Shown: piece after piece, positions 7,479 through 25,482 of the stretch
Position numbering within the stretch: position 1 is the first letter of the stretch
Layout: every line of letters begins with the position of its first letter
Source of the DNA: Synechococcus sp.
GTDB lineage: Bacteria; Cyanobacteriota; Cyanobacteriia; PCC-6307; Cyanobiaceae
Length of the DNA: 64,000 nucleotides
Direction of reading: 5' to 3'
Assembly (NCBI GenBank): GCA_047285535.1
Contig: JBJBDC010000001.1
Coordinates: 1,184,136-1,248,135 of the forward strand
Program-made: the position numbers and the translations under genes
The notes under the pieces: model-generated
The model's database searches: none
The model's input: only the letters and a program-made list of their open reading frames with translations
Told to the model about the DNA's origin: nothing

Positions 7479-7556
7479 GGGCACCTCCGTAGGGCACTGC
7501 CTCGGCCCGATCGTTCAATCCTAGAAAGGAATCACCCCCTCAAGCACCCCGCGCCC

Positions 7557-8240: not shown

Positions 8241-8763
8241 GTTGCCACCATCGAGACCAATTTCCATGTCCTACCAGGCTGCAACCTCTGCACTCTTTTT
8301 TACATGGATCAGTCTTTCGCCGGTATCCATCCACGCGCAAGGGATGCTCCCCGGATGTCGGCTCGAAAACGGAAGCTTGCAGTGCGTGCCTGGCTTAACG
8401 GCAGATCCTGAAACACAAATCAAAGTGCTCGACCAAGAAATCTCGAGCGATGTACAAGCCGAAGGCCACATCCAACAAACAATTCAAGGCCTGAAGAAAT
8501 TTATTCTCGTTGGAGAAGCACGTGAAGGGCGTTTGCTCAAAGCCGAATTTGATCTTCAGGGAACTGACATCAGCACTGTCGACATTCACTGGTACCAACG
8601 CCAGGGCAATGGGCCCTGGAAACTGAGGTCGAGCCCAAGCGAAGAGTCCTACCGCATTAGCGAAATCGATCGCGATGGAAAAATCATGGCCGTGATGGTT
8701 GTGAAAACAAGCGACGGCCAAGTCAACCGCGTCATGAGTAATACTATCGGACCAATTAAATAA
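8215..8763 (+). CDS. Hypothetical exported protein
   Basis: 182-aa ORF with a signal-peptide-like segment ending IHA-Q and a Cys pair (GCRLENGSLQCVPG). Start uncertain. Confidence 0.65.
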   Translation: MTTDHIGNKLPPSRPISMSYQAATSALFFTWISLSPVSIHAQGMLPGCRLENGSLQCVPGLTADPETQIKVLDQEISSDVQAEGHIQQTIQGLKKFILVGEAREGRLLKAEFDLQGTDISTVDIHWYQRQGNGPWKLRSSPSEESYRISEIDRDGKIMAVMVVKTSDGQVNRVMSNTIGPIK

Positions 8764-8792
8764 TTTTCCTCTGATTGGCTTGGCTCAAAAAA

Positions 8793-9536
8793 TCAAGTGC
8801 TAAGCATTGCCTCCTGCTGTCTAACAAGTTCAAAAAATTCCTGCTTCAAGCTTGGATCATGCCGAAAATCGCCGCGGACCACTGAATTAACCATGCTGGT
8901 TTGAGGCTCACGAACGCCTCTCCATTTCATGCAATAATGCTGGGCTTTAATAATAATACCGAGACCATGAGGAGAACATAAACGCTCGATCTCATCAGCC
9001 AAAATCATGACGGCTTCTTCTTGAATATGTGGCCTTGAAAATACCCAGTCAGCTACTCGAGTAAATTTAGAGATTCCTATCACCCTAACACCAGGTTTAA
9101 TGCCAATCCAACAGTTACCCATAATTGGAACTAAGTGATGAGAACATGCAGAACGGACTGTGATTGGACCAACAGTATAAATCTCATCAAGCTGTTTTAC
9201 ATTCGGAAAACTTGCCACCTTTGGCTGTTGATTGTAGCGACCCTTGAAGACTTCACGGAGATACATTCGAGCAACTCGCTCTGCAGTCTCAGTAGTGTTG
9301 TGATCATTTTCGATGTCAATCACCAAGCTACGAAGAAGATCTCTGACACGATCAGCAACCTCCTTCTCTAGTTCATCCAACTCTCCAGTCTGGATAAAAT
9401 CAGCAATATTGTCATTGGCAAGGAATGAGATGTCTTGATCAATAAGACGTTGGCGAATTCTTTGAGAGACAGAATTGACACTGGTATTAATAGGTGTCAA
9501 AGCACCGTTGGAGAGAGTAGGGATAGTAGAAGTCAT
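8793..9536 (-). CDS. folE: GTP cyclohydrolase I
   Basis: TAERVARMY, SACSHHLVP, IGISKF, RPHIQE, HYCMKWRGV. Confidence 0.96.
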   Translation of the reverse strand: MTSTIPTLSNGALTPINTSVNSVSQRIRQRLIDQDISFLANDNIADFIQTGELDELEKEVADRVRDLLRSLVIDIENDHNTTETAERVARMYLREVFKGRYNQQPKVASFPNVKQLDEIYTVGPITVRSACSHHLVPIMGNCWIGIKPGVRVIGISKFTRVADWVFSRPHIQEEAVMILADEIERLCSPHGLGIIIKAQHYCMKWRGVREPQTSMVNSVVRGDFRHDPSLKQEFFELVRQQEAMLST

Positions 9537-9548
9537 GTCAGGGGTGAT

Positions 9549-10256
9549 TTAAAAGGCACCAGTGGCTGGCATCAAAGTGAGATCTTCAACAACTTGTGTT
9601 GCGGGCTGTTCTGCTAGGTGAAGAAGAGTAACAGCAGCTTGGTCAGCGGGAATCATGGCAGCGCGGTCAAAAGAAGATTGGACCGTGGGAGAGTCCCAAA
9701 GTGAGGTATCCACCGCTCCGAGCGTGAGCGTGCAAGCACGAATTCCATTGCATCGCTCCTCCTCAGCGAGGCAGCGCGTAAAACTGGCTAACGCTGCTTT
9801 AACACTGCAGTAAGCACCCCAATTTGGAAAGGCATTACGGGCTGCGTGGCTATTGACATTAATCACGAGCCCACCAGCAGACCTCATTGAAGGAACAACT
9901 GCAGAACACATTTGAAAGACACTGGTTAAGTTGAGCTGCAGCAACCAATCCCAACTCTCCAAGGGCATCTCGAGCAATTTTCCAGTCCAAGCCGCCCCCG
10001 CGTTGTTGATCAAAACAGAAGGAGTTAAACCTTGACCGAGCAATGTAGCCACGCCTTGAGGGATCTCTTCAGGCTTGGAAAGATCAATGGCTTGATAAAC
10101 GATTCGCTGGCCTGAGATAGCCAACGTATCGGTAAGAGTTTGGAGAGATGTTGCATTACGGGACACGAGCAGGAGGTCCCAACCGGATTGAGCAAAAGCG
10201 AGAGCGGCACTGCGGCCAATGCCACGCGTTGCTCCGGTAATGAGTACGGAGGACAA
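9549..10256 (-). CDS. Short-chain dehydrogenase/reductase (SDR)
   Basis: TGATRGIG, NNAG and YCSVK catalytic YxxxK. Usual position in the accA-SDR-folE cluster. Confidence 0.93.
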   Translation of the reverse strand: MSSVLITGATRGIGRSAALAFAQSGWDLLLVSRNATSLQTLTDTLAISGQRIVYQAIDLSKPEEIPQGVATLLGQGLTPSVLINNAGAAWTGKLLEMPLESWDWLLQLNLTSVFQMCSAVVPSMRSAGGLVINVNSHAARNAFPNWGAYCSVKAALASFTRCLAEEERCNGIRACTLTLGAVDTSLWDSPTVQSSFDRAAMIPADQAAVTLLHLAEQPATQVVEDLTLMPATGAF

Positions 10257-10280
10257 TGAACCTCAGCGGTCGAAGCAATC

Positions 10281-11270
10281 CTAAGAACTTGAATCAGCTT
10301 CTGGCGAGCTGGAATCGATAAACCGCCCCATTGCCCGGAACTTCTGGTAACGCTGATCGCGTAGTTCCTGCGGTGAAAGAACGACCAACTCAGCAAGATG
10401 GCGTTCGAGGGCTTCGCGCAAGGTTTCTCCTGCTTCCAAAGGGGCCCAATTATTGCCCCCGGACGGCTCCGGAAGAACCTCATCAACAACACCGAGGCTG
10501 AGCAGATCCTGTCCGGTAATCCGCAATGCCGCAGCCGCTTCAGGAGCCTTGGCCGCATCACGCCAAAGGATCGATGCGCAGGCTTCAGGACTCGCCACCG
10601 TGTAAACGCTGTGCTCAAACATCAGCAACCGGTCGGCCACACCGATACCAAGAGCTCCACCTGAGCCACCTTCACCAATCACCGTGGCAATAATCGGCAC
10701 ACTCAGTCGGAACATCTCCCTCAGATTCACGGCAATCGCCTCACCTTGACCCTGCTCTTCAGCCAACAGTCCTGCATAGGCTCCTGGGGTGTCAATAAAG
10801 GCAAGCACTGGAAGCCCAAAACGATCGGCATGCTCCATGAGTCGAAGTGCTTTGCGATATCCGCCAGGGGTAGCCATCCCAAAGTTGCGAGCCACGTTTT
10901 CCTTTGTGTCGCGCCCTTTTTGGTGACCTAAAAGCAGTACCGAGCAATCTCCTAAGCGACCAATACCCCCTACCAAAGCCTGATCATCGCTACCACGCCG
11001 ATCACCATGGAGCTCAACCCAATCGTCACAAAACATCTGGATGAAATCCAAAGTGCTTGGTCGATGAGGATGACGGGCAACCTGAATTTTTTGCGCCGGA
11101 GTCAGATTCTGAAAAATCTCCTCTCGTCTACGGGCAGCAAGAGTTTCAAGCTGAAGGAGTTGCTGGCTAACGTCGACCTCAGAGTCTCTCGCGAGCTGAC
11201 GAATCTGCTCAATCTGCTGCTCAAGCTCTACCAGAGGCTTTTCAAAATCAAGTAAAGGGCGGCGTGGCAT
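10281..11270 (-). CDS. accA: Acetyl-CoA carboxylase carboxyltransferase alpha subunit
   Basis: [39 protein letters not shown]. Confidence 0.98.
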
Positions 11271-11785
11271 AAATACAGAAAAGAGGCGGGTCGACCGGTA
11301 ACAACTCAGCCTCGCACAAATCGATCAGGATGAGTGAGGACCAAAACCGCCAGGGGGCTTAGTGATAAGTAATTTCTTGGTCCATCAGCACACGGGCGCC
11401 ATGGCGCAAAGATCCGGTCATTTCCACTCTCTCATCATGAGAAAACTGAACGAACACCATCGCTCTCACTCAGACCGATCACGATCATATTATTGAACTC
11501 AACCGACGCAAAGCGCTCACATGAATCAAGGCAGCATCAAAAGAAACTCAGATCCAATTTATCTTTTACAACCCTCAATCTTGACATCGATAATTCCTTG
11601 ATTCCTGAAATTGCTTCTTTCACACAAGCAGGAAGACAAAGGCAAGATCTGTATGGCTTTAACGCTGCGATCGGCAAGAATCTTGGACAAACAAAAGGTT
11701 AGAATCATTGAAAGGAGTTAGATTAAATCAAAAAACCAATCCTGGGATGAAATAGTCCAAGGTGGAGACAAATCCAAATCAGCAA

Positions 11786-12499
11786 ATGACTGAGAACCGG
11801 AATCACTATCTGCGTCCTGTTTGTTGGTGTGGGGGGATTCTCCGACACCACTGGGTGAAGACATGGAGATCAAACCAAAAGAGGACAGAGCCCTTAACCG
11901 TATTAATTGATCATCGAGAAGAGAAATTCAATCCATTATCGATGCACGCCATGGAGACGTTACTCTCAAACAAAGAAATTGAAAGACAGTGCAGATATCG
12001 AAAATCCCGGGACCGCAAGCACTACTTGATCAGAACAGCAATACTAAGAGAGTTACTAGGAATAATTCTTGAAAAGGACGCATCAAGCCTGAGATTTTTC
12101 AAAAATGAGAATGGCAAACCATTTCTTGAAAAACCAACAAAAATTGAATTCAATGTGTCTCACTCCAACGGACTAACGCTGATGGCATTCCATCCAAACT
12201 GTAAGGTCGGCATCGACGTAGAACGAATCAATAAAGAACTAAATTGGAAACCCATTGCAGATCGATGGTTTCCAGCGAAGATCAAGAGAGAACTCCTTTC
12301 AATACCAACAGAGCAACGAAACGAAAAATTCTTTGAATTGTGGTGTCGATTTGAAGCTATTCTCAAATGCAGCGGCCAAGGGATTAAGGGTCTTAACCCC
12401 TCAAATCCTGAACTAGTAGATGCAAAGGAAGCAATCTGGAATCTGGATGTACCTGCAGGCTACAAAGCGATCGTAGCCATGGAGAAGGATCACTGCTAA
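11786..12499 (+). CDS. sfp: Sfp-type 4'-phosphopantetheinyl transferase
   Basis: NGKP, FNVSHS, VGIDVE, FFELWCRFEAILKCSGQG motifs. AT-rich. Start at ATG 11786 or GTG 11762. Confidence 0.92.
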   Translation: MTENRNHYLRPVCWCGGILRHHWVKTWRSNQKRTEPLTVLIDHREEKFNPLSMHAMETLLSNKEIERQCRYRKSRDRKHYLIRTAILRELLGIILEKDASSLRFFKNENGKPFLEKPTKIEFNVSHSNGLTLMAFHPNCKVGIDVERINKELNWKPIADRWFPAKIKRELLSIPTEQRNEKFFELWCRFEAILKCSGQGIKGLNPSNPELVDAKEAIWNLDVPAGYKAIVAMEKDHC

Positions 12500-12582
12500 A
12501 AAGACTCAACATCATGATGGCGTATCAATTCCAAACCCAACATCTAGATCGAAGAGGACATCAGATTAGGGAACGAATCTTG

Positions 12583-13554
12583 CTAAGACTTCCGAAGCGA
12601 TATTCTTAAATCATCTGAGCCTATGGCCGGCAAGTTGAGCAACGTTGGGCGAATCCTAAATAGATAAAAGCCGTCAAACTCGAAACAAACTGAATCCCAA
12701 TTTTCACCCATGATTTCCTGAGATAAAAATGGCATACTAGCCCGATTATAAGCCGTCAAAAACACCCTATAACCCGACAGCAACTCAGGACGCAAGCAAA
12801 CATTGAGATAGTGACGTGCTTTTATAATGCCGAAACGGAAAACAGTATCCGGATCACCCACAGGTAAAAATTCTCTCCGAACGAAAGCCTCAGGCAGCAG
12901 AGATCGGAACCGCAAGAGAGTATAGACATAATAGTGGAGACAGAAATAATAAAAACTACTGCGATCTATTAGATTTTCATACACCTCGTTAGCATTAATT
13001 GGTGTCTCAATACCGTTAATAGTGATGGAATCATCAACACAGACTGCTGGCATCCGAGGTTGCGATGAGAGGCCGTAGTAGCGAATCCCCAGAATGTAGC
13101 GACCTGGCGAAAGAGAAATTGAAGACCAGTCATTACCCGCATGCTCATTAAGCGAGCTAAATTGCGAAACAGTCGCAAATTCAGGAAATCTATAAACAAC
13201 ACCCGTCCACGAGTCTGCGCTTTGCATACAAACCGAAGTACGAATAGCAACACTCTTGGACACATTCAAAGGACCAATAGTTCCAATCAATGCATGAGTA
13301 TTCCAGCGTGGACCTGTTGTCATCAAGACAGGAAGACTGATTGGCATCTCCATTGTTGAGCGATCAAGCAGGCGCCAGGTTGTTGAGCGAGTTGATGACC
13401 GAGCCAGGAAACGACGATAAAGCCTGCTAATAAAATAACGATTAATTTTATAAAAGAAGAAGGATAAAATCGACAGAGGAATTTCCAAAGCCAAATAAGC
13501 CGAGGCGCAAATACCCTTGAATGAAAAAGACTTATAAGATTTGAATTGATTCAT
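12583..13554 (-). CDS. DUF6208-like protein, Ols-associated, function unknown
   Basis: EIPLSILSFFFYK, LPVLMTTGPRWNTHALIGTIGP and EFLPVGDPDT resemble, from recall, the protein encoded downstream of cyanobacterial ols genes. Its ATG overlaps the PKS stop (TAATG at 13552-13556). Confidence 0.72.
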   Translation of the reverse strand: MNQFKSYKSFSFKGICASAYLALEIPLSILSFFFYKINRYFISRLYRRFLARSSTRSTTWRLLDRSTMEMPISLPVLMTTGPRWNTHALIGTIGPLNVSKSVAIRTSVCMQSADSWTGVVYRFPEFATVSQFSSLNEHAGNDWSSISLSPGRYILGIRYYGLSSQPRMPAVCVDDSITINGIETPINANEVYENLIDRSSFYYFCLHYYVYTLLRFRSLLPEAFVRREFLPVGDPDTVFRFGIIKARHYLNVCLRPELLSGYRVFLTAYNRASMPFLSQEIMGENWDSVCFEFDGFYLFRIRPTLLNLPAIGSDDLRISLRKS

Positions 13555-16500
13555 TAATGTTGTCGCTGTTGACTGCCCACGAGGTTACGGTCGGATCGGA
13601 TTGAGTCTCCAAGGCCAGTTGCTTCAAGCACCTCGGCAACAATTGAGGCTGGAGAGTCAATGGTCAAATGATGACCTCCATCCACATCGAACCTGCGCGA
13701 ATATTTAAGCGCTTGTCTCAGATCATCAAGATCTTCTGGTCGGTTAAAACGACTTTCAACTCCGTAAAGTGACGTGACGGGACAACCAATATCAGCGAGA
13801 AGCTTGATGTAGGAAGAACGAGTAACAGGACCAGCCTGCAGGTTTAAACATGTACGGGACTGGAGAACAGGATCCCATCGCCATATCAATCCATCATGTG
13901 TTGAGCGAGTACCACGCTTGGCCAGGAGATGGGCAAATTCGTTTGACAAGCGCGGCATAACTTTCTGAAGTTTACTGACAGCGTCATTCAGTGACGACAT
14001 CGCTGGATGTTGTGGAGTGGATTTTCGATAATCCAACAAGGTCTGAATAGCTGAAACCGAATCATTTTCATTAGCAGGACTAGGGAGAACAGGTTCTACA
14101 AGTAAAAGATGACGTGTCTTTTGAGGCCTTAAATTAGCAATGATTGCAGCCAAAATAGAACCAAACGAATGCCCAATAAGTACCGCTGATTGATTAATTC
14201 GATCATCTAAAAGGCAGGCGATATCAGAAATAAAATCAATCAGCTGGTACGAACCGGGCGCATGCATCGATTGGGAAAGGCCATGCCCACGCAGATCTGG
14301 AGCAATCACTCGCAGACCGGCTGCAGCTAAAGGTTGAGCCACCAAATCCCATATAAGACTTTGATCGAGGATTCCATGCAAACAAACCACAGGAATTCCA
14401 TCCATTGGGCCCCACTCACATCCGCGGAGCTGAACGCCACCAATCCCCTGATAAGAAAATTCAGTGCGAGGTGTAGATGCTTGATACTGAAGAGAGATGG
14501 AGCGGAGATCTGGCTGGGAAGGTAGGCCAGAAACCTGGTAACCAAACTGCTCAGCGAGTTCGGCCGACTTCCGAGTCAGCTGATGATTGAGTTGAAGATT
14601 TTGCCAGTTAGTCGCGAGGGAAGAATCAATGGCTTGATGTTGTAGAAAGTTTGGATCACCAACTCCCATCGACTGCTGATGCAAACCGTCTGTGAGTCGT
14701 TCCCCCTTGTAAGGATTTAATAGTGCTGAATCGAAAGGAATTTCAAGAAAATCACAGAGCGGGATCAAAGAAGACTCTGGAGAGGCAACTAAATCCTCAT
14801 AGCGTAAGCTTATGAATTGGCGACTACCAAGTTTTTGACCTAAGGATTGAATGTTTGAATTCGAGTGTCTCCAAATTTCCTCAGCCAAAACATACGGATC
14901 TTCCTTTTCAAAGCCAAGCAGCTTATCCATTCTCATTTTCACAAAAGACTGAATAACGGGGAGAGGGTGTCGGATCAGATGAATAATTCTAAGATCTTCA
15001 AACATGCCTTCCAACTGATCAAGAACAGACATATTCATTGCATAACTTGGAGATTTATCAACTAAAAGCCTGCCATCTGATCTCGATTGGATGTAGCCAT
15101 AAACATCTGAGACAGGTAAAGAATCGTGCTCCCACTGTTCAACAAGACGAATACTATCTGGAGCAGAAAGAGAATCAATATCCATCAATAACCGTTGCAA
15201 TCCTTCTCCAAGATGTGAAAGTTGAAGATCCTCTTTTCGATCTTTCATTGTTGAGAAAGGAAGCAGATGAAGTTCAGGTGGAGAAAGAAGCTTAGGATGA
15301 CCAGCCAACATCACTCTAAGGAGAGTTGATCCAGATCTAGGACTAGAAAGAATGAAGCAAGCTTTGGGTAGTTTATTAACAAGAACAGTGGGTTTTTTCA
15401 CCTCAGACCACCAGCGATTCGCTGAATACAAGCTAGTTTGCTTAAGAGATTTCTCAACTAAGCTTTCTTGAGACTCAACGCAATGATTACGCTGAAACTC
15501 ATTAGCAAGATACCTAGACAGATCAAGGATTCTTGGATGTTGGTAGACTTCCCTTGGATAAACCATCAGATCAAAGTCTTGCTGAATACGGCTGATCGCA
15601 TCCATTACCATCAATGAATCAACTCCAGACTCCAAAAGATGAGTATCAGAAGTAATCGAATCATCAGAATCACCGATGAGTTCATTCAAAGTTGAAATTA
15701 GATAGTTAGAGAAGAAAGCAACTCGCTGATCCTTAGGCAGCTTGAGAAGCTTGTCTTTACCAGCCTCTTGACGACTTTTTGTACTTTCAAGAGTTGTGGT
15801 CAAGGCGCCAGAATCCGTAATAGATAGATTCTCTACAGAGTTGAAGAGCTTGAGAAAAGAAGCTTGTGGTCGACCTTGCAGAGTGTTGCAAAGCTGTTCC
15901 CAATCAGCATCAATGGCAATAACCACAGGTGGTATGCAGTTGGCATCAACAGAACTCAGCTGCAGCATCCGTGACAATAAATCGAGCGCCTGAGAAGACC
16001 TAATGGTCTTCAATCCTGCCGCCTGAAGGGTATCTTTCGAAGCAGGATGGGATGCCATGCCTTTTGCAGCCCAAGGCCCCCAATTGATACTTAAGGCAGG
16101 AAGACCAAGTTCTTTGCGTTGAATCGCAAAGGCATCCAAAGCTGCATTTGCTGCTGCATAGTGACTTTGCCCAGGAGAGCCGAAAACAGCTGCAGCGGAA
16201 GAAAACAGAATAAAGAATTGAACGGGTTTTTCAAGACTGAGTTGATGAAGATTCCAGGCTCCGAGCAACTTGGGTCTGATGACGGAATCCCAACGATCAA
16301 AACCAATGGAATGAACCGCACCATCATGCAGAACTCCAGCCGCGTGAAAAATTCCAAGAAGAGATTGTGCGGATTTGTCTAAAACTTCAATGACACGATC
16401 AATCGTCTCAGGATTAGCAACATCACCATTAATCAAGTCAATGGTGATGCCTTCAAAGCGCCATTGCTCAATACGCTGTTGAACCTCTGAATCAGCTTTA

Positions 16501-19500
16501 CTTCGACTAACAAGGATCAGTGACCGAGCACCTCGGTGAATCAGGTCTTGAGCCAACTCTTGACCAATGGCCCCAAGACCACCCGTAATCAACACGGCAC
16601 CATCTTGCGCAAATAAAGACTCGCGCAGGGGTAGCTCTAGGTCGCGACTCTCCAAAGATGAAGTCAACTTCTGGGCAGGAACAAGACGAGCTACCGAACG
16701 CATTCCCTTACAGAGGGAAATCTGAAGCTCTTTTTCGTGCCCCGCTCTGCTCTGCTGAAGTTCAGACTGAAGTTCAGACTGAAGTTGACTTTGTGCTGCT
16801 GGACTCAGTGAGTCATGCAGGTCAATGATTCCACCCACCAGATCAGGATGCTCAAGAGTCAAACTGCGAGCAAAGCCCTGTTGCAAGGCCTGACCTACAC
16901 TGCCATCAGTGGGTGATGCCGCAATCATCCAAAGACGCGGCGCTACCAATGATGATCGAAAGGACAGCAGTGCTTTCGCGAGAGCTAAATGGCGACGAGA
17001 AGATCCGGCAATAACAGGGATATCTTCGGAAGCAAAAACAGGTTCACTAATATCAAGAACACCAAGAATTTGAGCCTCAGATGCCGATGACAAGGATGAG
17101 AACAACAGATCCCAATGTTGTTGATCAGTAGCATCAAGCTCCCAATGATCATCGGAAATCTGTTGAACAAAACGGGCTTGCGTAATCCGACAACACGACT
17201 GGCCGACAGGTAGATGCTCTGCAAAAGCGGCAGCCCAAGAATCAGAAGAAAGGACAATCCACTGACCTTGTGGGCACTGATGAATATCCTGAATCGCTTG
17301 AGACGACTCTTGATGCCACTCAATCAGTTGCAACTCGGGTGAAAAAGACTCAAAGGCCGTTGAACCTCTCCTGAGGTTGGGGATGGATTGAAGCCCTTTC
17401 AGCCAATGTCTTCGATGTTGCCAAGGATAGGTAGGAAGCGGAATTCGATTTCGATGGAACGACTGATCAAAAACAGACCAATCAATGACGTAACCACCAC
17501 AGTGAAGCTGAGCAAGACTCTGAAGAATTTGAAGACTGTCAGAATGACGGGGGTGAAGGCTTGGAAGCCATAACAAGTTGCGTCCGGAAGGCTTATCAAT
17601 ATTTTTCTCGTAGGGAAAGCATGACTGCGCCATCTTTAACAATGTTGGACTGGGTCCAACCTCAACAAATGTTTTAACTCCCTTCTCAATGAGCCCGTGA
17701 ACACTTTGATAAAAATGAACGGGTTCTAAAACATGTCTACACCAATAGTCAGCTGTAGCAATCTCGTCGTCAATTTGCTCATGCGTAACATTAGAGATAA
17801 TCGGGATAGAAGGCTTAGAATAGTTAATTGTCCGCGTAACTAATGCAAATTCTTCAACCATCTCCTCCATCAGTGGAGAGTGAAATGCATGAGAGACATG
17901 AAGCCTCCGACTGACAATCCCTTCTTGGTCAAGAAGATCAACAAGTTTGTCAATCGAAAAGAGATCACCAGACAGAACACAATGGGTCGGGCCATTAAAT
18001 GCAGCCACAACCAATGCCAAAGAGTGCTTATGAACAATTGGTAATACGTGATCTGTTTCAGCAAAAACAGAAAGCATTCCACCTGGAGTTTTGACACCAC
18101 CCATCAGGGCGGCTCTGGCAGTGACAAGTCTCAGGCCATCCTCAAAATTGAAAACGCCTGCAACACATGCCGCCGAGAGTTCACCAACGCTGTGGCCCAT
18201 TAGCCAATCAGGATGAACACCCCAGCTTTGCCAGAGACGACAAAGCCCCACTTCCAAGACGAACAAAGCAACCTGAGAAAAACGCGTTTGATGCAGAGGG
18301 GCGCTGGTTTCGTCTAAAAGATGATTCGATGCATCACCAAAGATCAGTTCAGGAAGAGAGATCCCAAGCCCATCACCATGATTCTCTTGATTTAACAACG
18401 AATCCGCAGAATCAATGAATTGTTTGAAAAGAGGTTGGGTTTTATAAAGCTCACGCCCCATTCCTAAATACTGAGCACCCTGACCTGTAAAAAGAAAAGC
18501 GATTGGGGGCAAAACTACGGGTGCTTCACCTTCAAAGGATTGATGCTTTGCGTTGGTAGAAGCGATTTGCCCCTCTTGGGTGGACCTGAGAGATTGCTCC
18601 AACTCTGAGATCGATGAACCCACCCACGCGAATCGATTTGGCAGCAAAGAACGACCTGTATTGGCCGAAAAGCAAAGGTCTGAAAGTCGAAGGTCTGCAG
18701 ATGCTTGCTGAGAAGTATCCAGTAAATCTGCATAGCGCAAACGAAGCTGATCAAGCGCTTCCCCACTACGCGCAGTGAGTGTCAAAACATGGAATGGTCG
18801 CTCGATCAACCCATCTATCTGCTCAGAAGATGGAAATGCTGGTGGAGAGGAAAGAATTAAATGAGCATTTGTGCCACCGAAGCCGAAAGAACTCACACCA
18901 GCATGCTTAGTCTCATCAGACCAAGGCACACTCTCTGTGGGTATTTTGATTCGAGTTCCATCAATCTTGATCAACGGATTGAGAGATTTAAAATTTAGAT
19001 TTGGAGGGATGGAGTGATGTTGAATTGCCAGCAGAGTCTTAATGACTCCTGCAATGCCTGCTGCAGCCTCTAAATGACCAATATTCGTTTTAACTGATCC
19101 AACCCAGCAAGGAGTTTGAGTTTGTTCACCATGACTAAAAATTTGACGCAATGCGTTAATTTCAATCGGATCTCCAAGAGAGGTGCCAGTTCCATGGGCT
19201 TCGACGTAACTGATCTCTGAGGCTTTAAGACGAGCCTGATGTAACGCATCTCTAACGACACGTTTCTGAGCATCGCCAGAAGGAGCCGTTAACCCATTAC
19301 TACGTCCATCCTGAGTGATTGCAGATCCGGACACAACACCAACAATATTATCTGAATCTTTGACAGCTTCACTGAGTCTTTTCAGCAAAATAACTCCACA
19401 ACCTTCTCCCCGTACATACCCATCGGCGGCTTCATCAAATGCTTTGCAAAGGCCGTCCGGAGACAGCATGCCAGCCTGTTGAAAAGTATTGGTCAGCTCA

Positions 19501-22217
19501 GGAGACAAAAGAATATTGACACCCGCGGCGATGGCCTGATCACATTCACCACTAGCAATGCTTCGACACGCCAAATGAATGGCTACCAATGAGGATGAGC
19601 AAGCCGTATCAACGGCGATGGATGGACCTCTCAGGTCATAAATATAAGAAAGTCGATTGGCAGCAACGCTATGGGCATTACCAGTTCCGGTGTAAACGGT
19701 ACTTGAATTCTGTCCATTCAGTTGAGAGTAATCACTGCTGCTGATTCCCACAAACACACCACTGCGTGTACCAGACCATGACTCGGGCAATATCGACGCA
19801 TTTTCAAAAGCCTCCCAGGATGTCTCAAGCAGCATCCGCTGCTGCGGATCCATTTGATCTGCTTCGTTAGCAGCAATCCTGAAAAATCCTGAATCGAAAC
19901 GATCGACACTATCGAGATAACCACCAACTTGACTGGCAGCTTGAACTCGGAAGCGCCCTGATGAATTCAGATCAGAAGTTTCAGCGTAGTTAACAACTCC
20001 AGTGGCTCCATTGTTCAGAAGCTTCCAAAAAGATGCAGGAGACGAAGCACCAGGAAAACGACAACCAATACCCACAACTGCAATGGGTTCATCATGGCTT
20101 TTCGTGGATGTTATTGGCTGTTCAGGATCTTCGGCAAGTGCATCATGGACTAAGTATTTAACTATTTTTGAGATTGTTGGATAATCATAAGCAAGAGTAG
20201 GACTAATATTAGGAAGCGATTCTACGGAGAATGCCTCTGTCATCCAATCCTGGAGGTCAGCTGTAAGTCGAACTGCCGCAAGCGAGTCAAGCCCAAAAGA
20301 AGCGAGTGGCTGATGAATATCGATCTGATCAGCTGCAATTCCAAGATTCTCAGCAAGGTAATTAATAAACCAATCATGAAGACGACGTTCTTCTGCTGAA
20401 AATGCGAGACTGCCAGGAACTACACGTACTTCATCAAGTTGAAGCGAAGATTTATTGGCTGAAGATGGAGCTGCAGAATTTTGAGATTCAAGGGCTTTAT
20501 TTCCCCAAGCTCCAACAACATTTAATGCATTTTCAAGGTATTTCTGACGGCAGGCATAACGCTGTATCTTTCCACTTGATGTCTTAGGAATACTTCCAGT
20601 CTTGAGCAAAACAATGGCAGAGGGAAGTAGGTTATGTGTAGACACCACAGCCTCTCGAATGGCCGAAATTAGGGATGAAGAGTCAAGGCAACGCAAGGCT
20701 GATCTTTCAACTTCCTGAACGATGACGAGCTGTTCTCCAAGAGCAGAGTCTTCGACGGAAAATGCTGCGCCACAGCCAATTCTCAAACTAGGATGAGAGG
20801 CTTGAGCTGTTGCTTCAAGATCCTGTGGATAGTGGTTTTGTCCTCGAACGATAATGAGGTCTTTACGACGACCTGTGATAAATAATTCCCCTTGATAGAA
20901 AAAGCCTAGGTCACCAGTACGAAGATAGGAATCTTGGCTACCCTCAAGATTGCCCTTGAAAGTTGAAAGACTAAGTTCATCTTTTTTCCAATAACCTTGG
21001 GCAACACTGTTACCACTAACCCAAACTTCACCGATTCTGCCATCTTCCAGAAGCGTACAACTCTCTGGATCAGCAACAACAACCACCTGATCTGAGACCG
21101 GAACACCGCTACCTACCAGCGAAGACATTGAGGCATCAGAAGTTTGAGGAACCTCTAAAGCAATATTTTTTGACAATAAATCACTATCGAAATGTCGAAC
21201 AACTGGAAGGCCTGAACGGCTTCCTCCAGTGACAATTAACGTATTTTCGGCCAACCCATAACAAGGCAGAAATGCTTGTTTTTGAAAGCCACATTGCGAA
21301 AACGTTTTGCAGAATTTTTCAATCGTCTGAGAACGAACGGGCTCTGCACCGCTGAAAGCAAGAGACCAATTCTCAAGATTAAGCGCCTCAATCTGTTCGG
21401 GCTTGATTTGCTTCGAGCAAAGGTCATAGGCGAAATTAGGACCTCCACTGGCTACGGCCTTGAAACGAGAAATTGCGGATAACCAGCGAAAAGGGCGTTG
21501 CAAAAAGGCAACGGGAGGCATCAAAATCATCGAGGCCCCAATAAACAGAGGCTGAAGGATCCCTCCGACGAGCCCCATGTCGTGATAAGGCGGAAGCCAA
21601 GACACGGCAGTGGCACCTGCCTCAACACCAAAACATTGATTAATGAACTGCGTGTTTGAGATAAGATTTCCGTGTCCAACCATCACACCTTTGGGCGAAC
21701 CTGTAGACCCAGAGGTGTACTGAAGAAAAGCAAGATCTTCGGGATTTATATTTTTATATGTCCATTGACTTGCACTTTCAAGATCAACACTATCCGTGGC
21801 AATACAATCTATCTGAGGACAATCATCATTGGATATATGCTTTCCAATAGAGTCTTTCAGAGATGATGTCGTCAGAGCGATTGAAGCCTGAGCATCCCGA
21901 ATAATCAGATTCAGGCGCGTGACAAGTTGAGAAGAGCGTGGCGGATAAGCAGGAACTGCTACAACGTTTGCGTAAAGACAACCAAAAAAGCTCGACACAA
22001 ATTCGAGGCTTGGATTATATAAAAGAAGTGCTCTCTTTTTACTGAGTCCTCGTGCTAAAAGACTGGCGGCAATTGCACGGGCCCTTTGATCTAGTTCTGC
22101 AAAAGACCACCGATCAGTTTCTGTTTCCCCGTCCTGCAAGAAGGAGAATGCAAGTCGATCGGGGTGAGCAGCAGCCCTCTCCCGCAGCAAATCGACGAAT
22201 GAGGAGAAGACATGCAT
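13554..22217 (-). CDS. ols: Olefin synthase-type type I PKS: FAAL-ACP-KS-AT-KR-ACP-sulfotransferase-thioesterase
   Basis: FAAL: LQYTSGSTGSPKGV, WLPPYHDMGL, CYGLAE, LRTGDLGF, IPKTSSGKIQR. ACP1: FGLDSL. KS: DPQQR, DTACSSSL, EAHGTGT, NIGHLE. AT: GQGAQ, GHSVGE, HAFHS. KR: GGLGAIG, HAAGVLHD, YAAANA. ACP2: SGVDSL. ST: SSPRSGSTLLRVMLAGHP, VDKSPSY, LRYEDLV. TE: HGILDQ, GHSFG, VEP, GGHHL. Confidence 0.95.
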   Translation of the reverse strand: MHVFSSFVDLLRERAAAHPDRLAFSFLQDGETETDRWSFAELDQRARAIAASLLARGLSKKRALLLYNPSLEFVSSFFGCLYANVVAVPAYPPRSSQLVTRLNLIIRDAQASIALTTSSLKDSIGKHISNDDCPQIDCIATDSVDLESASQWTYKNINPEDLAFLQYTSGSTGSPKGVMVGHGNLISNTQFINQCFGVEAGATAVSWLPPYHDMGLVGGILQPLFIGASMILMPPVAFLQRPFRWLSAISRFKAVASGGPNFAYDLCSKQIKPEQIEALNLENWSLAFSGAEPVRSQTIEKFCKTFSQCGFQKQAFLPCYGLAENTLIVTGGSRSGLPVVRHFDSDLLSKNIALEVPQTSDASMSSLVGSGVPVSDQVVVVADPESCTLLEDGRIGEVWVSGNSVAQGYWKKDELSLSTFKGNLEGSQDSYLRTGDLGFFYQGELFITGRRKDLIIVRGQNHYPQDLEATAQASHPSLRIGCGAAFSVEDSALGEQLVIVQEVERSALRCLDSSSLISAIREAVVSTHNLLPSAIVLLKTGSIPKTSSGKIQRYACRQKYLENALNVVGAWGNKALESQNSAAPSSANKSSLQLDEVRVVPGSLAFSAEERRLHDWFINYLAENLGIAADQIDIHQPLASFGLDSLAAVRLTADLQDWMTEAFSVESLPNISPTLAYDYPTISKIVKYLVHDALAEDPEQPITSTKSHDEPIAVVGIGCRFPGASSPASFWKLLNNGATGVVNYAETSDLNSSGRFRVQAASQVGGYLDSVDRFDSGFFRIAANEADQMDPQQRMLLETSWEAFENASILPESWSGTRSGVFVGISSSDYSQLNGQNSSTVYTGTGNAHSVAANRLSYIYDLRGPSIAVDTACSSSLVAIHLACRSIASGECDQAIAAGVNILLSPELTNTFQQAGMLSPDGLCKAFDEAADGYVRGEGCGVILLKRLSEAVKDSDNIVGVVSGSAITQDGRSNGLTAPSGDAQKRVVRDALHQARLKASEISYVEAHGTGTSLGDPIEINALRQIFSHGEQTQTPCWVGSVKTNIGHLEAAAGIAGVIKTLLAIQHHSIPPNLNFKSLNPLIKIDGTRIKIPTESVPWSDETKHAGVSSFGFGGTNAHLILSSPPAFPSSEQIDGLIERPFHVLTLTARSGEALDQLRLRYADLLDTSQQASADLRLSDLCFSANTGRSLLPNRFAWVGSSISELEQSLRSTQEGQIASTNAKHQSFEGEAPVVLPPIAFLFTGQGAQYLGMGRELYKTQPLFKQFIDSADSLLNQENHGDGLGISLPELIFGDASNHLLDETSAPLHQTRFSQVALFVLEVGLCRLWQSWGVHPDWLMGHSVGELSAACVAGVFNFEDGLRLVTARAALMGGVKTPGGMLSVFAETDHVLPIVHKHSLALVVAAFNGPTHCVLSGDLFSIDKLVDLLDQEGIVSRRLHVSHAFHSPLMEEMVEEFALVTRTINYSKPSIPIISNVTHEQIDDEIATADYWCRHVLEPVHFYQSVHGLIEKGVKTFVEVGPSPTLLKMAQSCFPYEKNIDKPSGRNLLWLPSLHPRHSDSLQILQSLAQLHCGGYVIDWSVFDQSFHRNRIPLPTYPWQHRRHWLKGLQSIPNLRRGSTAFESFSPELQLIEWHQESSQAIQDIHQCPQGQWIVLSSDSWAAAFAEHLPVGQSCCRITQARFVQQISDDHWELDATDQQHWDLLFSSLSSASEAQILGVLDISEPVFASEDIPVIAGSSRRHLALAKALLSFRSSLVAPRLWMIAASPTDGSVGQALQQGFARSLTLEHPDLVGGIIDLHDSLSPAAQSQLQSELQSELQQSRAGHEKELQISLCKGMRSVARLVPAQKLTSSLESRDLELPLRESLFAQDGAVLITGGLGAIGQELAQDLIHRGARSLILVSRSKADSEVQQRIEQWRFEGITIDLINGDVANPETIDRVIEVLDKSAQSLLGIFHAAGVLHDGAVHSIGFDRWDSVIRPKLLGAWNLHQLSLEKPVQFFILFSSAAAVFGSPGQSHYAAANAALDAFAIQRKELGLPALSINWGPWAAKGMASHPASKDTLQAAGLKTIRSSQALDLLSRMLQLSSVDANCIPPVVIAIDADWEQLCNTLQGRPQASFLKLFNSVENLSITDSGALTTTLESTKSRQEAGKDKLLKLPKDQRVAFFSNYLISTLNELIGDSDDSITSDTHLLESGVDSLMVMDAISRIQQDFDLMVYPREVYQHPRILDLSRYLANEFQRNHCVESQESLVEKSLKQTSLYSANRWWSEVKKPTVLVNKLPKACFILSSPRSGSTLLRVMLAGHPKLLSPPELHLLPFSTMKDRKEDLQLSHLGEGLQRLLMDIDSLSAPDSIRLVEQWEHDSLPVSDVYGYIQSRSDGRLLVDKSPSYAMNMSVLDQLEGMFEDLRIIHLIRHPLPVIQSFVKMRMDKLLGFEKEDPYVLAEEIWRHSNSNIQSLGQKLGSRQFISLRYEDLVASPESSLIPLCDFLEIPFDSALLNPYKGERLTDGLHQQSMGVGDPNFLQHQAIDSSLATNWQNLQLNHQLTRKSAELAEQFGYQVSGLPSQPDLRSISLQYQASTPRTEFSYQGIGGVQLRGCEWGPMDGIPVVCLHGILDQSLIWDLVAQPLAAAGLRVIAPDLRGHGLSQSMHAPGSYQLIDFISDIACLLDDRINQSAVLIGHSFGSILAAIIANLRPQKTRHLLLVEPVLPSPANENDSVSAIQTLLDYRKSTPQHPAMSSLNDAVSKLQKVMPRLSNEFAHLLAKRGTRSTHDGLIWRWDPVLQSRTCLNLQAGPVTRSSYIKLLADIGCPVTSLYGVESRFNRPEDLDDLRQALKYSRRFDVDGGHHLTIDSPASIVAEVLEATGLGDSIRSDRNLVGSQQRQH
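16755..16786. repeat. 12-bp in-frame tandem repeat (CTGAAGTTCAGA x~2.7) inside ols
   Basis: Read directly. Encodes QLQSELQSELQ upstream of the catalytic KR core. Confidence 0.8.
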
Positions 22218-22382
22218 CAAGTGGACTTTAAGACGTCGTTGGAGAGGCGAAATGCCCTTCCCAATTAGCTGGACATTGCACCCTGAACCCTAGTGATGAG
22301 CAGGCCATGAAGCTCTGGGCAACGATCAGCGGCATGGATTGTAAGCATTGCTACTGATAGTTGGATGATCGATTGACAATCT

Positions 22383-23195
22383 TCAGACTCTCCGTTCGTC
22401 TCCAGGAGGTGGCCAACTTGACGCCAACAGGCTTGTAAACAAACGAATCCAGTGCTCGACGAGTGCTGTTTCCAGCTGACGTCCAATGCTGGCATCTGCA
22501 CCACGACTGTCCCCCACAACCCCGGAGACGCTTAAGTCTGCCGTGAACCAAGCGAGAGGTGCAGGCCCTTCAAGACTCCAGCCTTCAGGAGGAGTGGCTG
22601 CTGCTGCCCTCGTGACATGATCACCGTCAACGGGCCGCTGAGTACCGACCAGAGAGGGTTCGAGAGCAAGCATCAGACTGGTTTCAGCCAGCCCCGCATG
22701 CAGACCATGCGCCATCTCGCTCGACGGGATAAGAGACCGGAGTTCTGCGACACCGCTCCATAGAAAACAGGGCAGAACAGCCATGGATGGCGTTTCAACC
22801 GCCAATTCTCGTGCAGCGGCTTGCATTAACCCAATCTGCCCACCATGGGCATTGAACAGCACCAAGCGATTGAGTCCCTGGGAGCACAACTGAGTCCCCA
22901 CCTCGATGATCAACTGGGTCATTAATCCAGAGGACAAACTCAAAGTTCCAGGAAAACCTGCATGTTCCGGAGAGAAACCAATGGATTGAGTGGGAAGACT
23001 CCAAATCGGTAGATGCTGCGGAAGCTTTGACATCACAGAGGACAGAATCCGCTCTGAGAACAAAGCATCTGTCGCCAAAGGCAGATGAGGGCCATGCTGC
23101 TCAAAAGCTCCCATTGGCCAAACCATGGTGGAGCCCGATCGCTGCAATTCAGCCCCGGCCTTAGGCCAGCTCAACCTGTCCAAGCGCCGCGTCAT
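22383..23195 (-). CDS. Creatininase family protein
   Basis: GAFEQHGPHLPLATD, GFSPEH..FPGT, NAHGG, HAGLAETS, SGVVGD. Confidence 0.93.
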   Translation of the reverse strand: MTRRLDRLSWPKAGAELQRSGSTMVWPMGAFEQHGPHLPLATDALFSERILSSVMSKLPQHLPIWSLPTQSIGFSPEHAGFPGTLSLSSGLMTQLIIEVGTQLCSQGLNRLVLFNAHGGQIGLMQAAARELAVETPSMAVLPCFLWSGVAELRSLIPSSEMAHGLHAGLAETSLMLALEPSLVGTQRPVDGDHVTRAAAATPPEGWSLEGPAPLAWFTADLSVSGVVGDSRGADASIGRQLETALVEHWIRLFTSLLASSWPPPGDERRV

Positions 23196-23281
23196 CGAAA
23201 CACCTAAGTGAGCTTGTGCAGTCATGGACCGTCAAGCCTCCCATTTCCTGCCAGACTGTCCTATCGAGGATATTTGAACCC

Positions 23282-24571
23282 ATGGCGGGATCAGGAAGCC
23301 AACAATCCATAAATAACAAGGGGCAAAGCCCGGCAGCTCAGCCGCCGCGCAAGCCATTGCAAGTCATGCATATCAGTCGCAAAGACGAACAGGAACGCCT
23401 TAGCCGTGAAGCAGAAGAAGCAAGGGCAGCCGCTGATGCGGCAACGGCTCGTGCTGTTGAACTAGAACAAGCTGCGCTAAGAGCACAAAGCTCACTAGCC
23501 AATCCTCCACTAGCTGCAACTGCGTTAAGGAAGCCCCCCGCCCTTAACGATGACGCTCAAAGATTTGATACCGATGAGCTCAGTGGAATAAGCATGGCAG
23601 ACCTGCTTGGGCCTGCTGACTCGAACTCAAAAGCCCAGCGGTCCAGCCCTCCTTCGACGAAACCCTCGAACCGCAGCGTTGACGACTTCGACTTTGACGA
23701 AGGGGCTTTTTTAGCCGCACTCGATGCCAATGAACCTGTTGGCACCACAGGAGAAGTCGTCACCGGAACCGTGATCGGAATCGAAAGTGATGGTGTTTAT
23801 GTCGACATTGGTGGCAAAGCCCCTGGCTTTATGCCCAAAAACGAATGTGGTCTCGGAGTGATCACCAGCTTGAAGGAGCGGTTTCCTAAGGGGTTAGAAG
23901 TCGAAGTGTTGGTGACTCGCGAACAAAATGCCGATGGAATGGTCACCATCAGCTGTCGAGCTCTAGCGCTGCGTCAAAGCTGGGAAAAAGTTAAACAGCT
24001 TGAGAAGGAGGGTAGGGTCGCGCAGGTCAAAATCACTGGATTCAACCGTGGTGGAGTGACCTGTGATTTGGAAGGCCTGAGAGGTTTCATCCCTCGATCG
24101 CAATTGCAGGATGGGGAAAACCATGAATCTTTGGTTGGCAAAACCATGGGGGTGGCATTCCTCGAAGTCAATCCTGAAGCTCGAAAATTGGTCCTTTCTG
24201 AAAAACGAGCAGCCACTGCGGCCCGCTTCTCAGAATTGGAGGTTGGTCAACTGGTTGAAGGGCACGTAGCAGCGATTAAACCTTATGGACTATTCATCGA
24301 TCTCGGAGGAATTAGCGGACTCTTACATCAGTCAGTCATTACAGGAGGCAGCATGCGATCCATGCGCGAAATCTTTGATCAAGGAGATGCTGTCAAAGCT
24401 TTGATTACAGAATTGGATCCTGGGAGAGGACGCATCGCTCTAAACACCGCAATCTTGGAAGGCCAACCGGGTGAATTACTTGTTGACAAAGAAAAAGTGA
24501 TGGAGGAAGCGACCGATCGAGCCAACAGAGCTCGTAGCGTCCTAAAACAACAGGAACAATCAGCTGGATGA
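23282..24571 (+). CDS. rps1b: S1 RNA-binding domain protein (ribosomal protein S1 homolog B)
   Basis: Three S1 repeats (GVYVDIGGK, GLRGFIPRS, YGLFIDLGGISGLLH) after a low-complexity N-terminus. Confidence 0.9.
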   Translation: MAGSGSQQSINNKGQSPAAQPPRKPLQVMHISRKDEQERLSREAEEARAAADAATARAVELEQAALRAQSSLANPPLAATALRKPPALNDDAQRFDTDELSGISMADLLGPADSNSKAQRSSPPSTKPSNRSVDDFDFDEGAFLAALDANEPVGTTGEVVTGTVIGIESDGVYVDIGGKAPGFMPKNECGLGVITSLKERFPKGLEVEVLVTREQNADGMVTISCRALALRQSWEKVKQLEKEGRVAQVKITGFNRGGVTCDLEGLRGFIPRSQLQDGENHESLVGKTMGVAFLEVNPEARKLVLSEKRAATAARFSELEVGQLVEGHVAAIKPYGLFIDLGGISGLLHQSVITGGSMRSMREIFDQGDAVKALITELDPGRGRIALNTAILEGQPGELLVDKEKVMEEATDRANRARSVLKQQEQSAG

Positions 24572-25482
24572 TTTCCGCCGAACAGATCCAGAACGATGGC
24601 AGCAAACCGTCCAACGCAATCCTCATAGGCGATTGGGAACTCGATTTCTATTCCAGGCCAATCCTGGAGGCAGATGGCAAAAAACGTTGGGAACTTCTGA
24701 TCGTCAGCTCACCGATTGAAGAATCAAACATCACCTTTTGCTTTGAAAAACGCTGTCCAGCCGGAAGCGTCAATTCAACCTGGTTAACAAGCGCCCTGAA
24801 AGAAGCCATTGCTGCTGCTCAAGACCAGGGATTTGCCGCTCCACGCAAGGTTCGTTCCTGGAGAAGCTCCATGCGAACAATGGTGCAGAGGGCTTCTTCT
24901 GAACTAGGACTCGAGATGGTCCCAAGCCGTCGAACCTATGCCTTGTTCGATTGGCTTGCTGAGCGTGAACAGAACGTTTACCCCAACGAACAGGGCTACA
25001 TGGCAGGGCCCCTTGCGCCACCGCCATCAGCCGTTCGAACCCCGCCTCGCCCTCTACCGGAGTCTGTTCGCGGTGATGCTTGGAATTTGGCCGAACTTGC
25101 AGCATCAAACTTACGAGAAGCAACAGCGTGGCCCATCGGTTTCCGAGGTCTGCTTCCAGTGCCTGAGACGATTAGCGACGATCAAGTCATCCCTGGGCTG
25201 CGCCTGTTCAGCCAAACCAGAGCATTAGCCTTAGCAGGTCTCCTTGGTGGTCTTGAGCCTGTACGCCTCAGGATCAGCAGCACCCAACTCCTATTGGACG
25301 CGGGTCAGGATGACTGTTGGCTGGTCAGCGATCTCAGCGCAGAAGAAGCAAAGGCGGTTTCCTCTCTGATGAAACACTCTGCAGATCATGCTGATGGCTT
25401 GCAATTCCTGGCTGTTCAAACCTCACCTGAAGCTAAGCGTTTTGAAGGGTTTTGGATGCTGCGTGATCAAGCTGAACCATGA
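24568..25482 (+). CDS. Tab2/Atab2 family RNA-binding protein
   Basis: WELDFYSRPILE.DGKKRWELLI, VPSRRTY, GFWML. Confidence 0.92.
   Translation: MISAEQIQNDGSKPSNAILIGDWELDFYSRPILEADGKKRWELLIVSSPIEESNITFCFEKRCPAGSVNSTWLTSALKEAIAAAQDQGFAAPRKVRSWRSSMRTMVQRASSELGLEMVPSRRTYALFDWLAEREQNVYPNEQGYMAGPLAPPPSAVRTPPRPLPESVRGDAWNLAELAASNLREATAWPIGFRGLLPVPETISDDQVIPGLRLFSQTRALALAGLLGGLEPVRLRISSTQLLLDAGQDDCWLVSDLSAEEAKAVSSLMKHSADHADGLQFLAVQTSPEAKRFEGFWMLRDQAEP

Follow-up and report, generated by a model that had tools for sequence, protein, structure and literature searches.

An olefin synthase cassette at the ado/aar address of a marine Synechococcus genome, with signs of entry by homologous recombination

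The genes for acyl-ACP reductase (Aar) and for aldehyde-deformylating oxygenase (Ado) stand in an ado-aar-accA-SDR-folE cluster (SDR: short-chain dehydrogenase/reductase), which is widely conserved in cyanobacteria (Klahn 2014, PMC4094844; here and below, statements taken from papers hold for the accessible part of each text). Another route to hydrocarbons is olefin synthase (Ols), which loads a fatty acid, extends it by two carbons, reduces it, sulfates it and decarboxylates it, the product being a terminal alkene with one carbon more than the acid (PMC10114076). Ols and FAAR/ADO are never found together, and horizontal transfer has been suspected (Coates 2014, PMC3903477). The subject of the present analysis is a stretch of 64,000 nucleotides from a Synechococcus sp. 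(assembly GCA_047285535.1, contig JBJBDC010000001.1, positions 1,184,136 to 1,248,135), referred to as the window. In it, an Ols gene, a gene for a DUF6208 protein and a gene for a 4′-phosphopantetheinyl transferase (PPTase) form a cassette between accA and a creatininase-family gene, i.e., at the address where relatives carry aar and ado.

Marine Synechococcus and Prochlorococcus have been treated as uniform Ado/Aar alkane producers in the ocean hydrocarbon cycle (PMC10176705). In a supplementary table of Coates 2014 (PMC3903477), the rows consulted here for marine Synechococcus and Cyanobium (about 20) all have OLS = NA, and the accessible part of a preprint (10.1101/2025.10.24.684404) has no OLS annotation in the picocyanobacterial genomes of ProPortal and OceanDNA. 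Our literature search, to which subscription journals and figure supplements were closed, found no report of Ols for marine Synechococcus, Prochlorococcus or Cyanobium, and no paper noting Ols at the ado/aar address. PMC10176705 was also considered as a report of Ols in picocyanobacteria and was rejected, as it concerns oleC.

The genome that holds the window (G000) is closed, consists of one contig of 3,025,339 bp and is 99.99% complete. Genes were called from the open reading frame (ORF) list of the window and a Pfam scan (Table 1); gene order and strands are those given in an earlier note made from the letters of this stretch, and the feature is real and confirmed. That note had further claimed that ado and aar are absent, that a non-homologous pathway occupies their address, and that the block is AT-rich, and each of these claims holds. 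Profile searches for Ado (PF11266) and Aar (TIGR04058), both of which were detected in a Synechococcus elongatus control, found no match in the closed G000 genome, and tblastn of the window with Aar and Ado of the relative G016 found no relic (best E 0.23, at chance level). The flanks of G016 align with the window at 6000–11276 and 22543–29997 (about 76.5% identity), and the 2.2 kb between these flanks in G016 holds aar and ado, so that the gap filled by Ols in G000 is the ado/aar slot. A comparison of creatininase-accA synteny, which the note had proposed, gave the same slot in 25 ado-bearing loci of the genus: in each of them, creatininase and accA stand around ado. The GC content of 11271–22382 is 0.453 vs 0.529 for the rest of the window, and the junctions, for which the note had asked read support, are spanned by independent contigs from accA to PPTase and from the Ols start into the spacer. 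Compared with the ado-aar-accA-SDR-folE cluster, the Ols locus has the same chromosomal address, the same neighbours and the same presumed role (membrane hydrocarbons from fatty-acyl precursors), but other enzymes and another chemistry: alkanes from the ado/aar cluster have one carbon less than the acyl chain, whereas 1-alkenes from Ols have one carbon more.

The route by which the cassette entered is recorded in the flanking genes. A host tree was built from seven flank proteins, creatininase being left out (2277 columns, 28 rows). In this tree, G000 is sister to seven species (subclade A; support 100), all of which have ado, and G032, the other member of the genus with Ols, is nested among six ado-bearing species (clade B). 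A clade of G000 and G032 is rejected (approximately unbiased (AU) test, p 4.6e-5). In a remote stretch of the window (20 kb), the identity of G000 is 78–80% to G061, G016, G034, G029, G030, G009, G001, G018 and three incomplete genomes, vs 66–76% to the remaining genus and 67–74% to G032, both of the latter in fragments. The best named relatives of one flank protein are from marine Synechococcus, namely Synechococcus sp. UW179B (86%) and MIT S9504 (75%). The G000 flank proteins (M50, folE, S1, Tab2, CuOx4 and an FAD protein) are 77–91% identical to subclade A vs 62–81% to the six clade B genomes; creatininase is exceptional, with 74–75% to subclade A and 74–76% to clade B.

Sliding segments of 150 nucleotides explain the exception. 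Segments starting at 22386–22686, in the 3′ part of creatininase on the cassette side, are 68–80% identical between G000 and clade B and 45–67% between G000 and subclade A; for segments starting at 22806–23346, the values are 75–87% to subclade A and 45–67% to clade B. The identity partner switches at about 22.8 kb, which places the right crossover at about 22750–22900. When a DNA tree is built from the 5′ half of creatininase, G000 lies within the subclade A group (100/100); with the 3′ half, it is sister to seven clade B rows (96/93), and the test rejects its grouping with subclade A (AU p 0.00098). The spacer between Ols and creatininase is continuous with that of G032 (76% over 22150–22598) and does not align with the ado/aar relatives. 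On the other side, accA is closer to subclade A in nucleotide identity until about 11120, and its last 150 nucleotides no longer discriminate; the left crossover probably lies at or just upstream of the accA 5′ end. No tRNA gene was found in the window, repeats flanking the block are limited to chance-size matches of 14–24 nucleotides, and no integrase or transposase occurs among the block ORFs of at least 80 amino acids, where Pfam domains are confined to the three cassette genes. Since one half of creatininase groups with another clade and the other half with the clade of the host, a crossover inside this gene, and thus entry by homologous recombination, is indicated.

The explanation that accounts best for these data, and which we consider probable, is that ado/aar was replaced by the homologous-recombination import of an Ols cassette that looks functional, with 1-alkenes as the expected product. 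The cassette (PPTase, DUF6208 and Ols; about 11.5 kb) would have replaced aar and ado between accA and creatininase in a single import from about 11.3 to 22.8 kb, with one crossover inside creatininase (about 22.8 kb) and the other at the 5′ end of accA or a short way upstream of it. The donor would have been an unsampled marine Synechococcus lineage, related to clade B, in which the cassette already occupied this slot. Non-homologous cassettes are exchanged through recombination in conserved flanks at the loci for O-antigen and capsule. The present locus is similar in that two unrelated gene sets alternate between conserved flanks, with a crossover in a flank gene and a deviant composition of the cassette; unlike those loci, it has only two states, and what changes is a core lipid pathway, not a surface antigen.

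The Ols gene encodes a single polypeptide with the domain order FAAL-ACP-KS-AT-KR-ACP-ST-TE, i.e., AMP-binding (residues 12–411), ACP (609–688), KS (711–1077), AT (1242–1576), KR (1874–2051), PP-binding (2173–2238), Sulfotransfer_3 (2289–2497) and Abhydrolase (2610–2855) in Pfam. In phmmer searches of the PDB, the sulfotransferase domain (ST) matches 4GOX (E 8.9e-106) and 4GBM (E 3.7e-93) over nearly its full length, and the thioesterase domain (TE) matches the CurM TE 3QIT (E 1.4e-67), with the serine of GHSxG, the glutamate of LVE, the histidine of GGH and an arginine all aligned. In the CurM TE, these residues are the nucleophile, the Glu and His of the active site and the sulfate-binding Arg. 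The other motifs are DTACSS 870, HGTGT 1008 and KTNIGH 1043 (Cys-His-His of KS), GHSVG 1341 and HAFH 1443 (malonyl-type AT), FGLDSL 641 (serine of ACP1), GLGAIGQELA 1880 (nucleotide/NADPH site of KR) and TSGSTGSPK 168 (FAAL adenylation); the serine of ACP2 was missed by the motif pattern, although Pfam detected the domain itself. Only generic polyketide synthase (PKS) and FAAL models of NCBIfam matched, all of them under cut-off, and no Ols-specific model appeared. The full-length frame is kept in at least 10 marine and 11 Cyanobium-like sequences. APS kinase, which is needed for 3′-phosphoadenosine-5′-phosphosulfate (PAPS), is present in all five genomes considered (G000, G032, G016, G392 and G126).

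With this architecture, the FAAL domain would load a fatty acid onto ACP1, KS and AT would add two carbons from malonyl-CoA, KR would form a 3-hydroxyacyl intermediate, ST would sulfate this intermediate with PAPS, and TE would hydrolyse and decarboxylate it, giving a terminal alkene with one carbon more than the starting acid. From its sequence, the enzyme looks functional. Intact catalytic motifs, the extra PPTase of the cassette and the APS kinase of the genome together suggest that the cell should make 1-alkenes, probably C15–C19 depending on the acyl pool, in place of pentadecane and heptadecane. A related terminal module is that of CurM in curacin A synthase (4GBM, 3QIT), which has a homologous ST-TE pair for decarboxylative off-loading; CurM, however, closes a long assembly line and has no FAAL, whereas the Ols of the window is a stand-alone single module acting on fatty acids.

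The cassette PPTase, a weak match to HetI under the NCBIfam cut-off, likely converts both ACP domains of Ols to the holo form. G000 and G032 have two PPTases each, one of them in the cassette, and the ado/aar-bearing G016 has one; G392 and G126 also have one each, and their cassettes are without PPTase. DUF6208 lies directly downstream of Ols in 27 of 80 DUF6208 loci from public genome contigs (L032–L111). Its AlphaFold2 model (pLDDT 88.2) shows a hydrophobic helix at the N-terminus and, after it, two β-sandwich domains, and the best fold matches (Foldseek, VIA-align) are the uncharacterised structural-genomics proteins 6ANS and 2P3Y (Z about 10), the others being generic β-sandwich domains. 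ESM Atlas features gave no hint to its function (recognition 1888), and no paper mentioning “DUF6208” was found in the literature search.

Several side observations concern DUF6208. Over 46 cyanobacterial sequences, 35 positions are invariant, including a GPRWNTH motif, and many loci of Pleurocapsales type have no Ols within 10 kb of DUF6208. A weak DUF6208-like fragment with four stops (G014:C1:532808-532954, L011; E 2.3e-4, under cut-off) lies far from the hydrocarbon locus of an ado-bearing member of the genus and may be a chance match or a relic. G056, a genome of another family (L010, L031), has DUF6208 (E 1e-94) together with an Ado-family match (E 9.2e-92, with a score below the usual), and no Ols lies in the 20 kb that were covered.

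The ancestry of the cassette was followed through the ST-TE region and the full-length protein. The nearest ST-TE homologues are unnamed metagenome proteins (P0002–P0007, 65–76% identity), followed by proteins from metagenome-assembled genomes (MAGs) of Synechococcaceae and Cyanobacteriota (47–52%) and then by the classical Ols of Picosynechococcus, Gloeothece PCC 7424 and Pleurocapsales (about 45%). Full-length trees were computed with FastTree (39 rows) and in a quick IQ-TREE run (37 rows, omitting L073 for its long branch and P0067 as identical to L043); both are unrooted and without a non-Ols outgroup. Picocyanobacterial Ols forms one clade of 21 rows (10 marine and 11 Cyanobium-like) with support 100, and classical Ols, including that of Prochloraceae, lies in the other half of the tree. 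Thus, the cassette does not come from lineages such as PCC 7002, Cyanothece, Moorea or the pleurocapsaleans: of the earlier claim of horizontal acquisition, the acquisition stands, and the classical Ols lineages listed there are contradicted as its source by the Ols trees and the creatininase crossover. The Ols belongs to a picocyanobacteria-specific clade, and its immediate donor is probably another marine Synechococcus lineage. The olefin synthase of PCC 7002, reportedly described by Mendez-Perez in 2011, has the identical domain order, the ST of the window matches its structure 4GOX, and both occur only where ado/aar is absent. Unlike it, the Ols of the window stands in the ado/aar slot, and the marine clade travels with its own PPTase; identity to Picosynechococcus Ols (P0026) is about 45% in ST-TE, and the window protein falls in a separate clade confined to picocyanobacteria.

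The replacement is not confined to G000. DUF6208 occurs in two of the 46 species genomes of the genus (G000 and G032), and ST-TE matches within a frame of about 2900 amino acids occur in four of the 401 genomes of the family, from three genera (G000, G032, G392 and G126). All four have the order creatininase-Ols-DUF6208-accA-SDR-folE-PRAI-M50, and only the two marine genomes, G000 and G032, have the opposed PPTase. Searching public genome and metagenome contigs with the DUF6208 alignment gave further cases (L033, L034, L036, L037, L052, L135, L138, L139 and L141); L032 and L038 were left out of the locus counts as possible duplicates of G032 and G392. Among picocyanobacterial-type loci, accA comes next in 12 of the 12 that reach past DUF6208/PPTase, and creatininase in 9 of the 9 that reach past the Ols start. 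L033 and L034 are contigs of 12–13 kb filed in Phycisphaerae and Crocinitomicaceae MAGs, with creatininase-Ols-DUF6208-PPTase and, in L033, the start of accA. Since their creatininase is 74–75% and the accA 93% like that of the window, they are probably misbinned Synechococcus. The swap is rare but recurrent and always concerns the same slot; the earlier note's claim of an in-situ swap therefore stands, but not as something unique to this genome.

Seven further ST-TE matches in the family are stand-alone sulfotransferases. These genes, at G016:C1:2187375-2188196 and in six other family genomes (L021–L027), have frames of 432–928 amino acids and 33–41% identity to the ST of Ols, and lie in genomes with ado/aar and without Ols.

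Ado is present in 372 of the 401 family genomes (268 of the 273 of good quality) and in none of the four with Ols, and no Aar was found in any of these four; one further good-quality family genome is without ado. As separate observations on Ado, many Cyanobium-like genomes have two Ado matches, and G025 has a second, more divergent Ado-family match (G025:C1:1332704-1333348, E 1.2e-62) far from its main locus.

Outside the picocyanobacteria, the same neighbourhood recurs in part. Among the 80 DUF6208 loci, accA lies downstream in 14, six of picocyanobacterial type and eight of Prochloron, Prochloraceae or Paraprochloron type (L046, L047, L048, L054, L062, L070, L073 and L080), most of the eight with SDR, folE and PRAI past accA. 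Either Ols has come to occupy the accA-side slot two or more times, or this slot is an old home of the cassette. Other lineages (L035, L039, L040, L043, L079, L083 and L092, among others) have no accA within 10 kb, and thus the adjacency of Ols and accA is not universal.

Since the two pathways share one locus with conserved flanks, the gain of one would delete the other. We propose, tentatively and with slightly more doubt than belief, that ado/aar and ols-DUF6208 are alternative alleles of one accA-side hydrocarbon locus, exchanged between lineages by recombination in the flanks; that the exclusivity of the two pathways is largely a mechanical by-product and not only the result of selection against co-occurrence; that a low-GC Ols cassette circulates among marine Synechococcus clades; and that the Prochloraceae slot suggests a wider reach. 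The evidence is consistent with the one-locus arrangement as the cause of exclusivity and is no proof of it. In PCC 7002, Ado/Aar can stand in for Ols (Knoot and Pakrasi 2019, PMC6361979), which makes a natural swap physiologically plausible.

The composition of the cassette bears on its movement. In G000, Ols has GC/GC3 (GC at third codon positions) of 0.46/0.36, and its flank genes 0.52–0.56/0.47–0.53, folE excepted (0.43/0.37); in G032, the values are 0.46/0.37 for Ols and 0.56–0.65/0.63–0.69 for the flanks. Cyanobium-like Ols, at 0.66/0.77–0.78, is in or near the range of its own flanks, and metagenome fragments of the marine clade range from GC 0.42 to 0.64. Thus, the cassette branch of G000 and G032 remains AT-rich in hosts that differ in GC, which fits lateral movement. 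Within creatininase, GC is 0.58 in the imported 3′ part and 0.53 in the native 5′ part, which would be expected of a donor whose core genome was richer in GC than that of G000.

Sequence data from other sources agree with the assembly. Three sequencing runs, probably the source of the genome, hold all sampled words of the cassette, and one of them has a 132,628-nucleotide contig over 8500–25500 with zero differences. A run of another study, labelled freshwater metagenome, has near-identical pieces in all 30 bins, including an 880-nucleotide contig which bridges the accA-PPTase junction (11153–12032) and a 587-nucleotide contig running from the beginning of Ols into the spacer. Of the 30 bins, 20 and 23 are covered by the marine metagenome runs X7 and X10, respectively. 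With this bridging contig, and with the same layout in three other genomes and in separate contigs, the locus is not an assembly artefact. As to its distribution in nature, near-identical cassette DNA occurs in runs X4–X6 of one freshwater-labelled study (54–72% of sampled words) and in marine metagenomes too.

Other explanations of the locus can be weighed against these data. Ols could have stood at the locus in a genus or family ancestor and been vertically kept by G000, each of the ado/aar relatives having replaced it later. Such a history would agree with the monophyly of picocyanobacterial Ols, with a split between marine and Cyanobium-like Ols that parallels the host split, and with an Ols divergence like that of the flank proteins (72% vs 54–90%, G000–G032). 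It is nevertheless unlikely, as it needs dozens of independent re-acquisitions of ado/aar, given Ado in 372 of 401 family genomes and in the same slot in all seven members of the sister clade; the cassette-side half of creatininase belongs to the other clade, and the GC3 of the G032 cassette (0.37) is far from that of its host (0.63–0.69). A direct transfer by illegitimate insertion from a distant Ols cyanobacterium (PCC 7002-like, Cyanothece, Pleurocapsales or Moorea) would account for the AT-rich block, and these are the only lineages listed with Ols in the accessible part of Coates 2014 (PMC3903477). Their Ols, however, lies in the other half of the tree (about 45% in ST-TE), the nearest relatives are picocyanobacterial and all in the same slot, the spacer between Ols and creatininase is homologous in G000 and G032, and the crossover is in a homologous gene. 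We regard this very improbable transfer as refuted already by the Ols trees and the trees of the creatininase halves.

Two further readings concern the product and the assembly. The Ols-like synthase might give no membrane hydrocarbons, being silent, inactive or the source of something else, e.g., a sulfated or hydroxy fatty acid, in which case the cell would be hydrocarbon-free; the picocyanobacterial clade is, after all, only 44–49% identical to characterised Ols, and DUF6208 resembles only uncharacterised structures. We consider this quite unlikely in view of the conserved full-length frame with all checked catalytic motifs intact and the loss of ado/aar in four of four genomes with Ols; moreover, the presence of hydrocarbons is a conserved trait of cyanobacteria, and each pathway can take the place of the other (PMC8661006, PMC6361979). 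That a foreign PKS contig was joined into a Synechococcus chromosome during assembly or binning is suggested by the jumps of composition at both borders. A chimera is hardly credible for a closed single contig which is identical to the run contig over 8500–25500, whose accA-PPTase junction is bridged in another study, and whose layout recurs identically in G032, G392, G126 and contigs L033, L034, L135 and L138.

The preferred explanation, i.e., replacement of ado/aar through a single homologous-recombination import, also has points that weigh against it. The whole-gene protein tree of creatininase places G000 with clade B (96/97) and does not reject G000 with subclade A (AU p 0.067), and the halves of the gene were picked after the sliding-window table had been seen. 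accA is too conserved to fix the left crossover. The donor would be an unsampled lineage, and the imported part of creatininase is only 68–80% identical to any clade B genome. The host tree consists of seven genes within about 6 kb of the locus, supplemented by one 20-kb comparison, and is not a genome-wide phylogeny. The closest Ols, P0002 (78–79% amino acid identity), comes from a metagenome contig; a metagenome scan for its genomic context with the DUF6208 alignment gave only short marine fragments of 58–67% identity. The Ols proteins of G000 and G032 differ in 28% of their amino acids, which implies that the imports are not recent, and the persistent low GC could be a constraint of the genes rather than a sign of recent arrival.

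Taken with these points, it is well supported that a lineage regarded as uniformly Ado/Aar holds a new member of the Ols family, and the pathway was probably acquired by an allelic type of replacement via homologous recombination. There is a distinct Ols clade in picocyanobacteria, in marine and in Cyanobium-like lineages; thus, some such cells should release 1-alkenes, whose degraders and biomarker signatures differ from those of alkanes. A fixed address and a crossover in a flank gene offer a concrete mechanism, open to testing, by which the so far unexplained exclusion between Ado/Aar and Ols could arise, and, if the two-allele reading is true, the principle would extend past picocyanobacteria, since the Prochloraceae slot holds a different Ols clade. 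G000 and its ado/aar-bearing sister clade form a natural close pair for asking about the roles of alkanes and alkenes in thylakoid membranes.

Table 1. Features of the hydrocarbon locus and its flanks (window coordinates)
Feature	Coordinates	Strand	Evidence and remarks
folE (GTP cyclohydrolase I)	8793–9536	-	Pfam PF01227, E 1.8e-42; native flank; last gene of the conserved hydrocarbon cluster; 89–91% amino acid identity to subclade A
SDR family oxidoreductase	9549–10256	-	adh_short, E 3e-43; native flank
accA (acetyl-CoA carboxylase carboxyltransferase alpha)	10281–11270	-	Pfam ACCA, E 1.8e-136; native left flank
Left junction, divergent accA/PPTase spacer of 491 bp	11271–11761		Relatives align only to 11276–11319
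Sfp/HetI-type 4′-phosphopantetheinyl transferase (PPTase)	11762–12499	+	Pfam AASDHPPT_N and ACPS; cassette gene
DUF6208 gene	12583–13554	-	Pfam PF19713, E 3e-95
Olefin synthase (Ols), 2887 amino acids	13554–22217	-	Pfam domains in order
Ols/creatininase spacer, 165 bp	22218–22382		Probably imported along with the cassette
Creatininase-family gene, mosaic	22383–23225	-	Pfam PF02633
Putative imported tract, about 11.5 kb	11271–22800		PPTase, DUF6208, Ols, spacer and 3′ part of creatininase

The remaining details of the locus are minor. The SDR also matches NCBIfam NF005672 (363 bits, over cut-off). The start of Ols is an ATG one codon within a TTG-started ORF, and the start of DUF6208 overlaps the stop of Ols, with translational coupling. 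Rfam gave no family match over 8000–26000 of the window, and a scan for promoters and terminators returned fewer sites than shuffled sequences (11 vs 15.1 and 8 vs 13.2, respectively); one promoter-like site at 11565–11594 (+), 5′ of the PPTase gene, was not counted as evidence. Dips in GC also occur outside the cassette, in folE (0.43), although this gene is phylogenetically native, and in the 1-kb bins 4001–5000 and 40001–41000 (0.46).

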